Of a stretch of DNA of 8,610 nt, positions 3,255 through 6,788 are shown one piece after another. Source of the stretch: a virus (Duplodnaviria > Heunggongvirae > Uroviricota > Caudoviricetes); IMG/VR virus record IMGVR_UViG_2778261121_000004; one strand, 5' to 3'. The notes beneath the pieces are model-generated. The model was given only the letters and a program-made list of their open reading frames with translations, was not told the origin of the DNA and did not search any database. The first letter of the stretch is position 1, and every line of letters begins with the position of its first letter. The position numbers and the translations under genes are program-made.

Positions 3255-3479
3255 ATGAACCAACTTAACACACACCAAAATCATTCCGATCGTATTATCC
3301 GTGAAACCGAATGCCGCCACATGACTGGCCTATGCCGTACTACTCGCTATCTCATGGAGAAAAAGGGGGATTTTCCGGCGCGTCGCCAGCTCGGGGGGCG
3401 TTCTGTCGGGTGGCTCTTATCGGAAATTACCACTTGGCAGTTAAGCCAACCTAAAGTAGAAACCGGCAAAGCGGCATAG
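3255..3479 (+). CDS. alpA: AlpA-family phage transcriptional regulator (excisionase-like HTH)
   Basis: 74 aa. The C-terminal half (GGRSVGWLLSEITTWQLSQ) matches the AlpA family's conserved (G)xRSVGW...EIxxW motif. SD GAGGG (3241-3245) lies 9 nt before ATG 3255. The track's longer GTG-3162 form would add 31 uncharacteristic residues and bury the palindrome in coding sequence. Confidence 0.8.
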   Translation: MNQLNTHQNHSDRIIRETECRHMTGLCRTTRYLMEKKGDFPARRQLGGRSVGWLLSEITTWQLSQPKVETGKAA

Positions 3480-3496
3480 GTGCGGATATGTCACAT

Positions 3497-3524
3497 AAAA
3501 CAAAAGCGGCCTTGCAGGGCCGCC
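3497..3524 (-). terminator. Rho-independent terminator for the minus-strand RHH gene
   Basis: GC hairpin GCGGCC (3507-3512) / GGCCGC (3519-3524) with a 6-nt loop. On the minus strand it is followed by TTTTGTTTTA (complement of 3497-3506). No T-run on the plus side. Confidence 0.45.
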
Positions 3525-3615
3525 AGTGCAATCACACTAAACCTATTCATATCACCAGGCTGATCGCTGGTGGTCAAATCGTGAGCAAAGCTCTAAAAAT
3601 AGCTTCGGAACAAAA

Positions 3616-3795
3616 TCAGCCTTTTGGCTCGATGCCACGTTGCTTCAGTTCTTTACGGACAATTCGTTTGATCCAAGCGGCTAAAGACTCGTCACCGTCC
3701 TGTTGTTGGGCTTTTTCCATTAATTCTCTGAGTTCCGGATCAAGCCGGAATTGGAATGGAGGATTGCCTCGCCTTTCATTTTTGTGTGTTGACAC
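3616..3795 (-). CDS. Small ribbon-helix-helix-like DNA-binding protein; candidate repressor of the island
   Basis: Absent from the ORF track. Minus-strand translation is VSTHKNERRGNPPFQFRLDPELRELMEKAQQQDGDESLAAWIKRIVRKELKQRGIEPKG (59 aa), with a beta-strand then two helices as in RHH proteins. GTG start at 3795 has an AGGTG SD 8 nt upstream. It is the only minus-strand gene in the island and is divergent from the downstream operon. Confidence 0.5.
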   Translation of the reverse strand: MSTHKNERRGNPPFQFRLDPELRELMEKAQQQDGDESLAAWIKRIVRKELKQRGIEPKG

Positions 3796-3841
3796 GTCAA
3801 TTACACCTGTTGTAGTGTGTTTATGTGTAATGACACATTAC
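3789..3841. promoter_or_regulatory. Divergent promoter/operator region between the RHH gene and the Icd-like operon
   Basis: Inverted repeats TTGAC-ac-GTCAA (3789-3800, overlapping the RHH start) and GTAATG-aca-CATTAC (3827-3841). TGACAC recurs at 3790-3795 and 3831-3836, and there are several TGTGT runs. Confidence 0.35.
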
Positions 3842-3924
3842 ATACAAATGACAAAAAAGACAACGCCCCGGAGTGCGGGAACACTGCCGAGGCGTCTAAC
3901 CAAGACGTTAAATGGAGTAACGCT

Positions 3925-4131
3925 ATGGCTTCCGCTAATAGTACCACATCCGCGCGCCCTGAAAATCGCGTGTTTCTCTTCCTTGCCTTATCCCGTGCCG
4001 ATCAGAACGCCAGGCCACACCGTGAGCAAGTTATTGCCACCAGCGAACGCGAAGCGCGTCTTATGCTGGTGGGCCGCTACGTGCTTTCTTTTGCTGGTCG
4101 CCTGCCAGTATCAGAGGCTTATCATGAATAA
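3925..4131 (+). CDS. Small protein, Icd-like (P4 immunity-region cell-division-inhibitor-like) family, paralogue 1
   Basis: 68 aa. SD GGAG (3914-3917) lies 7 nt before ATG 3925. It shares the pattern F-x-[FL]-F-x-A...AD...A-x-[ST]-E-x-[ED]-AR...L-x-G...L-[ST]-F-x-A-[RK]-L with the 4519 gene. The family name is from memory, not a search. Confidence 0.6.
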   Translation: MASANSTTSARPENRVFLFLALSRADQNARPHREQVIATSEREARLMLVGRYVLSFAGRLPVSEAYHE

Positions 4132-4522
4132 GCCAATTACCGCTGCTGCTTACCTGCTTCACACTGCTGATATGTGCGCCTCGCAGGTGTGCCAACTGGT
4201 TGAATGCCACGACGCCGCCGGACACCATGCGCTATGTCAGACCTTATCGGCGGGGCTAATCGCGCTTAAGCTGGCTTGTTATGCGGATATCCAGTCTTCA
4301 CCAGACGCGGAAACAATACCGCCGCTTAGCCTGGAGGCTTACTGGCCTGATAATAGTTTGACGCTGGAATACTGCGAATCACTGGTAAAGGTGCTGTCTG
4401 TTGATGCCTTGCCCCGTGAAGTGATCCAGCCGCTTACCGGGCTGTTGCATGACCTGGTGAATATGCTGGCCGACCAGTGGAAAGAAGAACTGAAAACCAC
4501 AGATGCAGGGGGGCAATCATGA
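4124..4522 (+). CDS. Hypothetical protein (132 aa)
   Basis: SD AGAGG sits 6 nt before ATG 4124. It overlaps the upstream stop by 8 bp and the downstream start by ATGA. The upstream part of the track's 344-aa ORF (3488-4123) has non-protein-like composition and overlaps the minus-strand RHH gene. Confidence 0.6.
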   Translation: MNKPITAAAYLLHTADMCASQVCQLVECHDAAGHHALCQTLSAGLIALKLACYADIQSSPDAETIPPLSLEAYWPDNSLTLEYCESLVKVLSVDALPREVIQPLTGLLHDLVNMLADQWKEELKTTDAGGQS

Positions 4523-4809
4523 ATAAGTTCACCTGGCTTTTTCAGGCTATCTACGCCGACCACCAGCCCCCTGTTGTTATGCGCACACAGGCTGATACCG
4601 AAGAGGATGCCCGCCGCCAGCTTTCCGGCGCATGGTCCTTAACATTTGTCGCCAAACTTAATACGGCCTGCCCGGTTAACCATCAGTTTTACGCAGAAGA
4701 AGATCAATCCATGTGGGGGATCGTTGCCACCAGGCTGACTCATGACGACATCACGCAGTGGGGCAATGAGGTGTTCGGGAATCGTAATAACTTGCGAGCT
4801 ACCTGGTAA
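4519..4809 (+). CDS. Small protein, Icd-like family, paralogue 2
   Basis: 96 aa. SD AGGGGGG sits 5 nt before ATG 4519, which overlaps the upstream stop (ATGA). FTWLFQAIYADHQ...TEEDARRQLSGAWSLTFVAKL aligns with VFLFLALSRADQN...SEREARLMLVGRYVLSFAGRL of the 3925 gene. Confidence 0.6.
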   Translation: MNKFTWLFQAIYADHQPPVVMRTQADTEEDARRQLSGAWSLTFVAKLNTACPVNHQFYAEEDQSMWGIVATRLTHDDITQWGNEVFGNRNNLRATW

Positions 4810-4837
4810 TTCTTCCGGCTAAATAAGGCATTAAATA

Positions 4838-5161
4838 ATGGCTAAAAAAATCAATCAGGTTAAACCTGAGGGCAAAACTCACCCTTTAATTGAGATTAAC
4901 ACCCGCTGGAAAGATAACTGGGGTATCAAAATCACTATTTGCAAGGTGGAAGAAAACCGCGTGATGTATATCCGCGACGGGTACGAACATGAATGCGTAT
5001 GCTCACCGGATCGCCTGCGTCGTGAGTTTTCTTTCCTCCCGGAAGAGAGCAAGGAATGTCAGGCTGCTGCCATCGCCAGAGGCCGTAAACGCGCCGCCGA
5101 ACTGCGTCATAGTTTGCCGGTTACTTTTGGATCGGCTGGCTGGGATAAGGGGCTGGTATGA
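4838..5161 (+). CDS. Small protein paralogous to the N-terminal domain of the downstream Rep ATPase
   Basis: 107 aa. SD AAGG sits 9 nt upstream. The motifs W-K-D-N-W-G-I-K-I and RHSLPVTFGSAGWD match W-E-E-D-W-G-L-K-I and RHNLPITYGSDGFD in the N-terminus of the 5158 gene. The stop overlaps the next start (ATGA). Confidence 0.65.
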   Translation: MAKKINQVKPEGKTHPLIEINTRWKDNWGIKITICKVEENRVMYIRDGYEHECVCSPDRLRREFSFLPEESKECQAAAIARGRKRAAELRHSLPVTFGSAGWDKGLV

Positions 5162-6573
5162 AGAACGCGCCGAATCTTAAACATCAACCGAAAGATAAAC
5201 ATGTTGAGGTCATTATCTTTGCCGGGGCTGATGCCTACGATCACGCTAAAACATGGGAAGAAGACTGGGGATTAAAAATTGCCGCAGATAAAACACCGCC
5301 TGTCTGGCTGGGGCCAAAGCAACTGGCAGAGCTGGCGAACCTGAACATTATCGACCAAGGGCGTAAGTACGCCCGCGTCTATCTTGCCGGAGACATTGAA
5401 TCTGTCCGGATTAACTCCATTGCTGAAAAACTGGCGCTGGCGGGCGTAGAGGAAGCGAAATTATATAAGGGAATACCTGATAAGCACCCGGAAGACTGGC
5501 ATGATTATCTGGGACGCCTACGGGGCGCTGCGGAGGTGCAGGAGGATGCGAATACTACCCGGCATAACTTGCCGATCACTTATGGATCAGATGGATTTGA
5601 CCGGGAGCAGGACTACACGCTGAAGAATTATCTTCCCGCTAACAGTCTGTGCAGTATTTACGGCCCCAGCGGAAGTTATAAAAGTTTCCTTGCTGTGTCG
5701 TGGGCCTGCCATATTGCCGCAGATCGTAAGTGGGCTGGTAAAAGTGTTTCTGGTGGTACGGTTATGTACATTGTCGGGGAAGGTGGGATCGGTGTGCCTC
5801 GCCGGGTAAAGGCATGGGAAAATATTCACCAAAGGAAGGTAACCAACCTGGCCCTGGTTAACCGTCCTGTTTTTCCGGTGCGTTGCGAGGAGGTGCAGGA
5901 AGTGGTTAAAGCTGCGCGTGATATCCAGAAAGAAAAGGGGCAGCCGGTACAGTTGATTGTTATTGATACTCTTGCTCGTTGTTTTGGTGGTAACGATGAG
6001 AACGACGCGAGAGACATGGGGGCATTTATCGAAGGGTGTGACACCATTAAACGAGAAACAGGGGCCACTGTGCTGGTGGTACATCATTCGGGGAAAGACG
6101 ATAGTAAAGGCGCTCGCGGATCCAGTTCGTTCCGTGCCGCTCTGGATGCAGAGTTTAATGTTAGGCGTGAAGGAGATGGTGGGGCCATTATACTTACCTG
6201 TACAAAAATGAAGGATGCAGAAGAACCGCGCCCCGCCGCCTTTGACCTGAAAACGGTGAACCTGTTTACTGATCGCGATGGTGAAGCAGTTGCTTCTCTT
6301 GTGCTACATGATGTGGAGCGTGAACCACGCGACATTGATCCAGAACTGGCTGACGTCAAACACCTGACTGAGAACCATGCGGCGTTGTGGCAATGTATTC
6401 GGAGCAGAAAGGCCAAAGGTGAGGTATGCAACCGTGCTGTGCTGCGTGACGATATCATAGCGATGGAAGGGGAGAACGGGCGGAAAGCCTTTACACGTTG
6501 GCTGAATAAGCTGGTCAAAGATGGGCTAATCAAAATTGATGACAGTGGCGAAGTAATTATGCTGAAGGGCTGA
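5158..6573 (+). CDS. Replication initiator ATPase/helicase, RecA-like P-loop NTPase (RepA/AAA_25-type) with N-terminal domain of unknown function
   Basis: 471 aa. P-loop GPSGSYKS (around nt 5662-5685), Walker B QLIVIDT, and the downstream VLVVHHSGKD motif typical of RepA/DnaB-like RecA-fold ATPases. SD AAGGGG sits 5 nt before ATG. The gene is followed immediately by an iteron array. Confidence 0.85.
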   Translation: MKNAPNLKHQPKDKHVEVIIFAGADAYDHAKTWEEDWGLKIAADKTPPVWLGPKQLAELANLNIIDQGRKYARVYLAGDIESVRINSIAEKLALAGVEEAKLYKGIPDKHPEDWHDYLGRLRGAAEVQEDANTTRHNLPITYGSDGFDREQDYTLKNYLPANSLCSIYGPSGSYKSFLAVSWACHIAADRKWAGKSVSGGTVMYIVGEGGIGVPRRVKAWENIHQRKVTNLALVNRPVFPVRCEEVQEVVKAARDIQKEKGQPVQLIVIDTLARCFGGNDENDARDMGAFIEGCDTIKRETGATVLVVHHSGKDDSKGARGSSSFRAALDAEFNVRREGDGGAIILTCTKMKDAEEPRPAAFDLKTVNLFTDRDGEAVASLVLHDVEREPRDIDPELADVKHLTENHAALWQCIRSRKAKGEVCNRAVLRDDIIAMEGENGRKAFTRWLNKLVKDGLIKIDDSGEVIMLKG

Positions 6574-6576
6574 AAA

Positions 6577-6788
6577 GTGCGCGAAAAATGCGCATGGTGC
6601 GCGGAATGGGCTAGAAATACATGTTTTGCGCACTTTCTTTGTATATATACAGAAAAAGTGCGCGGAATGGGTAAAATCATCCTGAAACCCGCATCATTAC
6701 TGGCTTTAGGCAATGCGCACTATGTTTAATCTTGCGCACCTAAGTGCGCGCCCGAATAAGTGCGCGGGAAAATGCGCGAGGTGCGCAG
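6577..6788. repeat. Iteron array with AT-rich tract; candidate origin of replication of the element
   Basis: Eleven copies of the core TGCGC[AG] in about 210 bp: GTGCGCG at 6577, 6597, 6658, 6744 and 6760; TGCGCA variants at 6588, 6627, 6713, 6732 and 6781; TGCGCG at 6773. The 14-mer GTGCGCGGAATGGG occurs twice (6597-6610 and 6658-6671), and TAAGTGCGCG twice (6741-6750 and 6757-6766). An AT-rich tract lies at 6633-6657. Confidence 0.6.

Follow-up and report, generated by a model that had tools for sequence, protein, structure and literature searches.

Immunity region immI of phage P1 is organised as C4 RNA, icd and ant. An Icd-family gene heads the controlled operon, and a small RNA masks its translation start. 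To our knowledge, no ribbon-helix-helix (RHH) repressor belongs to this region. The promoter detail of P22 immI, reportedly given by Liao et al. in 1987 and by Wu et al. in 1987, includes a divergent repressor and an operator over both promoters. In the same region, two protein repressors and the antisense RNA sar control ant (PMC2629481). The two repressors are the RHH proteins Mnt and Arc. A repressor/operator pair together with an antisense RNA is already known as a type of switch. The module of RHH gene, operator and antisense RNA that is described here is conserved and widespread, and it appears to be uncharacterised.

Stl, the repressor of the SaPIs, has the same orientation as int, and helper proteins inactivate it. 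As far as we know, it is not an RHH protein. In these Gram-positive PICIs, the genes of the master repressor and of the xis/pri/rep operon run divergently (PMC6092414). No repressor is known to have been described for Gram-negative PICIs. In them, AlpA acts as an activator, and the global repressor was called 'unclear' (PMC6092414). A 'YlcI/YnfO family protein' and Icd are listed for the cf-PICIs only as accessory genes (PMC13612085). The literature was searched for Icd-like genes with an antisense RNA and for PICI AlpA with an RHH protein or sRNA, and nothing relevant appeared.

The island and its leftward RHH gene

The window is the whole stretch of 8610 bases that was analysed. It is matched with 100% identity by NZ_CM142789.1, and it is a satellite-like island of about 8 kb that lies between yhdJ and fis in E. 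coli GPEC1186. The gene order of the island is int, a hypothetical gene, an AlpA-family gene, a small minus-strand ORF, two Icd-like genes, DUF4222, a RepA/AAA_25 helicase and a capsid-like ORF. The AlpA-family gene scored 60.5 bits against Pfam Phage_AlpA, and the first and second Icd-like genes scored 71.7 and 48.4 bits on NF033153. The island belongs to the Gram-negative PICIs or cf-PICIs by its int, Phage_AlpA, AAA_25 RepA helicase, capsid-like ORF and chromosomal integration, and the module is common to two recognised members, EcCICFT073 and the Pasteurella cf-PICI Pmp8. The features of the control region are collected in Table 1.

Table 1. Features of the control region and of the operon beside it (positions in the window)
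Feature	Position	Strand	Basis
Intrinsic terminator of the RHH transcript: stem 3524 to 3505, then T-run TTTTGTTTTAT	3495..3524	-	terminator scan
RHH gene, 59 aa, GTG start, predicted autoregulated repressor	3616..3795	-	ORF list, RefSeq, conservation
GTGTGTTGACAC block with TTGACA at 3789-3794: predicted -35 of the Icd-like operon promoter, inside RHH codons 1-3	3784..3795	+	conservation; promoter role predicted
Predicted operator pair 2: AATTACA-N5-TGTAGTG (consensus TGTAATG)	3799..3817		heptamer search and alignment of 44 loci
SD of the RHH gene, AGGTG, 8 nt ahead of GTG	3804..3808	-	read from sequence
Predicted -10 of the icd promoter: TGTAGT (16-nt spacer) or TAGTGT (18-nt); consensus TGTAAT/TAATGT	3811..3818	+	position and conservation
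Predicted operator pair 1: perfect 7-3-7 palindrome TGTAATG-ACA-CATTACA	3826..3842		most conserved block, intergenic alignment of 44 loci
Tentative RHH promoter: -35 TTGTCT at 3863-3858, 17 nt, -10 TAATGT at 3840-3835	3835..3863	-	44 loci, weak
Antisense-RNA-like element on the RHH strand	3850..3933	-	RNAalifold, covariation, covariance model
First Icd-like gene, predicted target under the antisense RNA: SD GGAG at 3914-3917, ATG at 3925-3927	3914..3927	+	read from sequence
Predicted regulated operon (Icd-like, hypothetical, Icd-like, DUF4222, RepA-type helicase)	3925..6573	+	gene annotation and profile matches
Predicted extended -10 of the antisense RNA promoter, TGgTACTAT, in Icd-like codons 5-7	3938..3946	-	conservation

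Several features of the right part of the island are recorded separately. A near-perfect hairpin at 6625-6668 directly follows repA; it came up as a spurious microRNA match and is possibly a terminator or part of an origin. A 71-aa ORF at 6924-7139 (+), MKQTKSKGMTVMLDTELTEAVRQIREKV..., is RHH-like by eye; its sole match is phrog_3255, of unknown function, with no match in Pfam or NCBIfam. The 57-aa ORF at 7154-7327 (+) has the RefSeq name 'antitermination protein NusG'. It has no match in Pfam, PHROG or NCBIfam, and the name therefore seems unreliable. The 317-aa ORF at 7657-8610 (+) matches a major head protein PHROG weakly (E=3.7e-6), and with this capsid-like ORF the island may be a decayed capsid-forming PICI. 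The right end of the island of about 8 kb contains fragments of a Rha-family gene. No tRNA was found in a tRNA scan.

The predicted minus-strand frame with its GTG start and SD is present (Table 1). It had been described as unannotated. RefSeq has a CDS with identical coordinates in E. coli GPEC1186 (WP_097307115.1, 'YlcI/YnfO family protein'), so the description is true only of the ORF track used for the original prediction. Gene annotation confirmed that the gene is the only leftward one of the island and that it diverges from the Icd-like/Rep operon. This placement had been contrasted with the PICIs, where the master repressor was said to be usually divergent from int. The comparison was inverted. 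The repressor of Gram-positive PICIs is likewise divergent from xis/pri/rep (PMC6092414), and the placement of the RHH gene is therefore canonical. On the RHH strand, the ORF list gave no further ORF between the RHH gene and alpA, and the RHH gene is, as judged from the sequence, monocistronic. At the start position, the relatives have GTG in 21 cases and ATG in 8.

A word-indexed search found 108 homologues with 63–98% identity across Enterobacterales and Orbales. An exhaustive HMM search gave only 39 clusters at 50% identity, and the RHH family is therefore compact. In 45 genomic loci, the RHH protein is 63–95% identical (mostly 80–95%), and the neighbouring Int, AlpA and Icd-like proteins are 22–66% identical, far below the RHH protein. 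An absence of conservation of this small ORF among related elements in a synonymous-pattern analysis had been named as one observation that would count against it. The ORF was found to be strongly conserved. Relative to the RHH gene of the window, non-synonymous differences amounted to 0.03–0.13 per site and synonymous sites were saturated (0.7–1.0); these are given as proportions in place of dN/dS, with pS above the Jukes-Cantor limit for most gene pairs, and five Orbales genes that were out of register were left out of the codon analysis. Invariant residues run through all synonymous codons, for example AGA, CGG, AGG and CGT for R17. The low pN together with the synonymous codon turnover indicated that the gene is real.

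The proposed pattern of a beta-strand and two helices was borne out by an AlphaFold2 model and by a fold search. The model, built from the family alignment, had a pLDDT of 80.6 with helices at 20-33 and 38-52. The monomer has a short helix in place of the ribbon, which is expected for an obligate dimer and is not proof of one. The protein has the strand-helix-helix fold of about 45 residues of the RHH superfamily, and PHROG 228 'Arc-like repressor' matched it with E=2e-6. On the NCBIfam model YlcI_YnfO_N (NF041551) it scored 22.4 bits, below the cut-off of 30 for curated membership, whereas its positional counterparts in other islands scored 32–67 bits, above the cut-off (67 bits for the EcCICFT073 protein and 32 bits for subtype T1d). 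In Pfam, no RHH family matched the window protein and a chance match to RsiG was the only one. Neither the protein alone nor a profile of its close family found a meaningful match among the PDB sequences, and hhalign against Arc was in register with a probability of only 4%. With a profile including distant relatives, the PDB search gave weak matches to CopG (E=0.017), HP0222 and TacA-type RHH chains. The distant relatives individually match Pfam RHH_1/4/5/10, HicB, NikA-like and DUF3950, with one member each for RHH_1/4/5/10, HicB and NikA-like. The sequence matches are thus mixed, and the structural comparison supports the RHH fold class; the protein would bind DNA. The 59-aa protein is distantly related to the YlcI/YnfO N-terminal domain family. 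We know of no function for that family.

When the T1 subtypes are aligned, their variation is concentrated in the N-terminal arm and the beta-strand, and both helix 2 and the RGIEPKG tail at the C-terminus are invariant. The tail, encoded at 3616-3636, and W41, K43, R47 and L50 of helix 2 are kept across subtypes with different operators. This invariance suggests a common non-DNA partner or a role in oligomerisation.

Operator-like sites and predicted promoters in the divergent gap

The inverted repeats that had been claimed in the gap were recovered as a repeat with 13-nt arms at 3820-3848, which has the palindrome of pair 1 as its core. The 8610 bases contain only two exact copies of the heptamer TGTAATG, and both belong to this palindrome. 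Copies with one mismatch are found at 3799-3805 (-) and 3811-3817 (+). Thus, four TGTAATG-like heptamers lie in 44 bp, compared with about 0.14 expected from shuffles, and they are arranged in pairs with a spacing of 10–12 bp. Pair 1 overlaps the predicted RHH promoter -10 and the predicted icd transcript start region. Pair 2 overlaps the SD of the RHH gene and, in the predicted icd promoter, the spacer and the -10.

One of the inverted repeats had been placed over the start codon of the RHH gene. The sequence TTGAC-AC-GTCAA does exist at 3789-3800, but its arms are only 5 nt long and the palindrome is lost in relatives, where TTAAC is often found. It was rejected as an operator because it is not conserved. 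Conservation at this place applies instead to the block GTGTCAACACAC, which partially repeats, in direct orientation, the upstream box at a distance of 41 bp. TGTCAAC is present at the start codon in all T1 subtypes. In codons 2-4 of the RHH gene (TCA ACA CAC), the third positions are 90–100% conserved, whereas the rest of the gene is synonymously saturated. In the Citrobacter loci these bases are kept though they are non-coding, with translation starting further downstream. Conservation of third positions and of the non-coding Citrobacter copies points to a constraint at the DNA level.

A sigma-70 consensus promoter scan of 3450-4000 gave 0 sites passing the criteria, and the -10 candidates in the window match 3–4 of the 6 consensus positions only. 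The promoter assignments in Table 1 therefore follow from position and conservation only. For the tentative RHH promoter, TTG is invariant in the 44 loci and the TAATGT block is nearly so; the TT also belongs to the terminator stem of the RNA element described below.

Loci of other RHH subtypes were found through the RNA element. In each of them the subtype's own box is duplicated at the same two positions. One copy lies about 35–41 bp upstream, and the second, in every subtype, abuts (A/G/T)TGTCAAC, which is conserved at the start codon. Examples of the boxes are GGTAATTACC, ACGTACGTAC, AGGTGTACAC and AGGTGGTCAC, and in the CFT073-like type CTGAATCACA and GTGTGGCCCAC. Among the subtypes, the boxes change together with the residues of the N-terminal arm and the beta-strand. 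The matched recognition residues and boxes look like immunity types of a repressor/operator pair. The locus had been proposed as a repressor/operator switch. The operator part of that proposal stood: the gap repeats are operator-like, conserved within the subtype and swapped together with the beta-strand. The repression itself is our prediction from this pattern. The gap had also been described as a divergent operator region. This was incomplete. About 80 bp of it belongs to a conserved element that resembles an antisense RNA and has a -10 box and a terminator of its own, which the original prediction had missed.

Structure and distribution of the antisense-RNA-like element

The gap outside the operator is as conserved as the operator. 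On the RHH strand, this part folds into an outer helix GCCA/UGGU, a 5' hairpin (3922-3906), a terminator hairpin of 10 + 3 bp (3896-3862) and a U-run (3860-3850). The loop of the 5' hairpin holds the anti-SD CUCC, opposite the GGAG of the Icd-like gene. Among 43 distinct sequences, 97.6% of the cells are paired, compared with 38–51% when the partners were slid. Compensatory change was found in 13 pairs and 73 cells, and none of 500 shuffles reached the observed values of pairing and compensation. The strand of the structure is also indicated. RNAalifold gave -22.5 for the minus strand and -7.3 for the plus strand, and G.U cells numbered 143 on the minus strand versus 7 on the plus strand. The window sequence alone folds with -34.7 kcal/mol (z=-5.4) on the minus strand and with -24.0 (z=-2.4) on the plus strand. 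In the region 3600-4000, no Rfam family matched at E<=1, and the Rfam C4 covariance model of the P1/P4 C4-type immunity RNA gave no match.

The position of a -10 box was anchored on the conserved RNA motif TGGTYAGA. A TAnnnT hexamer lies 40–47 nt upstream of this motif in 137 of 144 distinct instances, compared with 4–38 in eight-position control windows. TGn precedes the hexamer in 44 of the 137; the extended -10 of Pmp8 is TGTATAAT. The hexamer sits in codons 5-7 of first genes that are otherwise divergent. A clear -35 of this promoter was not seen. These observations are most simply read as a cis-antisense RNA of about 80 nt that would extend from about 3931 to about 3852 and be directed against the translation start of the Icd-like gene; its transcription is predicted from the conserved box and the terminator. 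The RNA would then be a candidate for an RNA family absent from Rfam.

A covariance model of the RNA element was applied to loci outside its building set; the window itself scores 93 bits. The matches outside the training loci lie on the RHH strand just upstream of the RHH gene. The Klebsiella phage record P12620-1 scored 91.5 bits, and its RHH protein is 50% identical to the window protein over an aligned 81%. The Citrobacter tandem-RHH loci scored 81 bits. Pasteurella cf-PICI Pmp8 and EcCICFT073 both scored 54.5 bits, the latter with an RHH protein that has no BLASTP similarity to the window protein. Across 80 IMG/VR contigs there were at least 77 matches, and an RHH-type ORF begins 50–120 nt downstream of the RNA element in nearly all of those listed.

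The loci differ in their surroundings. In the prototype island EcCICFT073 (E. coli CFT073, NC_004431.1, 1380242-1381052), four features occupy the interval from alpA to the primase operon: an RHH gene of the YlcI/YnfO type, another small ORF that points leftward, the RNA element and an Icd-like gene. Recent RefSeq locus tags exist for the RHH gene (C_RS30120) and the Icd-like gene (C_RS30125). In Citrobacter (L026 and L033, about 5629-6168), one RNA element is followed by two RHH paralogues in tandem, which are about 50% identical. The RHH + RNA cassette is also carried by plasmid pECO-6dfa (NZ_CP026200.1, 5001-5319) and by about 30 further plasmids of E. coli. The plasmid cassette is 82.7% identical to the window, and the similarity stops at the first codons of the downstream gene. 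It precedes a hypothetical gene, a WYL (BrxR-like) gene and BREX genes, and it adjoins IS3 and Tn3 remnants. The module is also present in records deposited as phages, namely PQ569648.1 (Klebsiella phage P12620-1, 106 kb), OR845563.1 and OR851044.1. In PQ569648.1, annotated ORFs cross the RHH gene and the RNA element, and the annotation there is therefore doubtful.

Proposed control, alternatives and known systems

The reading that we regard as probable, with some reservation, is that an autoregulated RHH repressor and a cis-antisense RNA together silence the Icd-like/replication operon. An RHH dimer of dimers would bind the two TGTAATG-like subsite pairs in 3799-3842. The bound sites would be situated between the RHH promoter and the rightward Icd-like/DUF4222/RepA promoter and would overlap both; the -35 TTGACA of the latter would lie within the RHH codons 1-3. 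Since the operator overlaps both predicted promoters, RHH binding would repress the replication operon and autoregulate the RHH gene. The RNA of about 80 nt would be transcribed leftward from the -10 box in the first Icd-like codons, and it would stop at the intrinsic terminator before the operator. It would be fully complementary to the 5' leader, the SD and the start codon of the Icd-like mRNA, with the anti-SD displayed in a hairpin loop. It would block translation and/or trigger the decay of leaky icd/replication transcripts. The Icd-like product would be a potentially toxic cell-division inhibitor. Dual control would make sense in view of the cell-division-inhibitor family name and the replication module. 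Replication of EcCICFT073 without control is harmful to its host (PMC6092414).

Induction, for which EcCICFT073 is known to need AlpA, would have to overcome both layers. In the terminator scan, no plus-strand intrinsic terminator was predicted between the alpA stop and the Icd-like operon (3480-3615 region), and alpA transcription could therefore cross the RHH gene in antisense. A speculative route of induction would be such AlpA-driven rightward read-through. Helper phages induce alpA, and overexpression of AlpA alone induces the replication of EcCICFT073 (PMC6092414). From the latter it follows that any repression by the module is not absolute.

Four other explanations were weighed. In the first, which we regard as unlikely, the minus-strand structure is the leader of the RHH mRNA or an attenuator in it. 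The TAnnnT in icd would be the start of a transcription that mostly stops at the hairpin, read-through would give the RHH protein, and any antisense effect on icd would either belong to this circuit or be its by-product. The constant position of the RNA element, 50–120 nt ahead of an RHH ORF that shares its strand, agrees with this, as does the weak definition of a separate RHH promoter. However, the hairpin with its U-run is a typical efficient terminator, the operator boxes separate this terminator from the RHH gene and so occupy the expected place of a promoter, and CFT073-type loci have a good TATACT box there.

RHH proteins can act as activators or in other roles. The RHH protein could accordingly be a DNA-binding protein with a non-repressor role, as an activator, an accessory of excision or packaging, or a factor directed to the helper phage. 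YlcI/YnfO relatives are located in lambdoid prophages, the sub-threshold similarity is to YlcI_YnfO_N, a family with no assigned function, and the RGIEPKG tail that stays invariant beside different operators suggests a common non-DNA partner. On the other hand, the subtype-variable boxes lie exactly on the divergent RHH/operon promoter region, and the architecture is that of autoregulated RHH repressors. We regard a non-repressor role as quite improbable.

The conserved structure could also work on the plus strand as a 5'-UTR element of the Icd-like mRNA, with no antisense RNA involved. A small SD hairpin (CGUUA/UAACG) is possible on both strands, and the plus-strand fold has z=-2.4. However, the G.U cells of the minus strand would be A.C mismatches on the plus strand, and the RNAalifold energy is lower on the minus strand, which is also the only one where the U-run and the conserved TAnnnT hexamer make sense. 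The plus-strand structure was set aside because of the G.U asymmetry, and we regard it as very improbable. That the RHH protein is the antitoxin of a type II toxin-antitoxin pair is hardly credible: it has weak matches to VapB, HicB, TacA and RelB-type RHH antitoxins, and JGI labels some homologues 'HicB family', but the reading was rejected because there is no partner gene, as the RHH gene lacks a co-transcribed toxin gene and a conserved same-strand neighbour, its own terminator is followed by the convergent alpA, and the only conserved partners in more than 45 loci are the RNA element and the divergent operon.

The repressor and antisense RNA reading has consequences for the islands as a class. 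The published model of Gram-negative PICIs has only the activator AlpA, and the cassette sits between alpA and the replication operon, also in the prototype. The module is a testable candidate for how the islands stay silent and for how different islands avoid cross-talk. A control module would account for the conservation of the 320-bp cassette, which is far above that of the surrounding genes. As a tentative extension, which we hold to be possible rather than probable, the RHH + operator + antisense RNA cassette would be the missing maintenance (immunity) switch of Gram-negative PICIs including EcCICFT073. The Icd-like/replication operon would be kept silent at the transcriptional and the translational level. 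The switch would exist in many specificity types, each with a matched beta-strand and box, and it would be flipped by helper-induced AlpA or by a helper factor acting at RGIEPKG. The RNA would represent a new family.

Among the described systems, P22 immI is the closest in logic, and the module resembles it in logic, not in membership. In both, a small RHH repressor gene (a predicted repressor here) is divergent from the controlled operon, and the operator lies on both promoters (predicted here). In P22, a small cis-antisense RNA begins inside the start of the controlled gene and covers its RBS; the putative RNA of the module, predicted from structure, strand, terminator and -10 box, would do likewise. 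In contrast, there is no membership by sequence, given the hhalign result with Arc and no Rfam match to sar. One repressor is present here and two in P22, the RNA structure differs, and the target is the satellite Icd-like/replication operon instead of the antirepressor. With P1 immI, the module shares an Icd-like gene at the first position of the controlled operon (here 71.7 bits on NF033153). The C4 RNA is sense-encoded and processed from the same transcript, whereas the RNA here is on the opposite strand. The module is like Stl/Rpr of the SaPIs in that the repressor gene, a predicted one here, is divergent from a satellite replication operon. Unlike in those islands, int and alpA point towards the RHH gene here, and EcCICFT073 is induced through the activator AlpA. 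The YlcI/YnfO family of lambdoid prophages (NF041551; Pfam DUF3950) consists of small proteins with the same RHH-like N-terminal domain, from which the window protein differs by its score below the cut-off.
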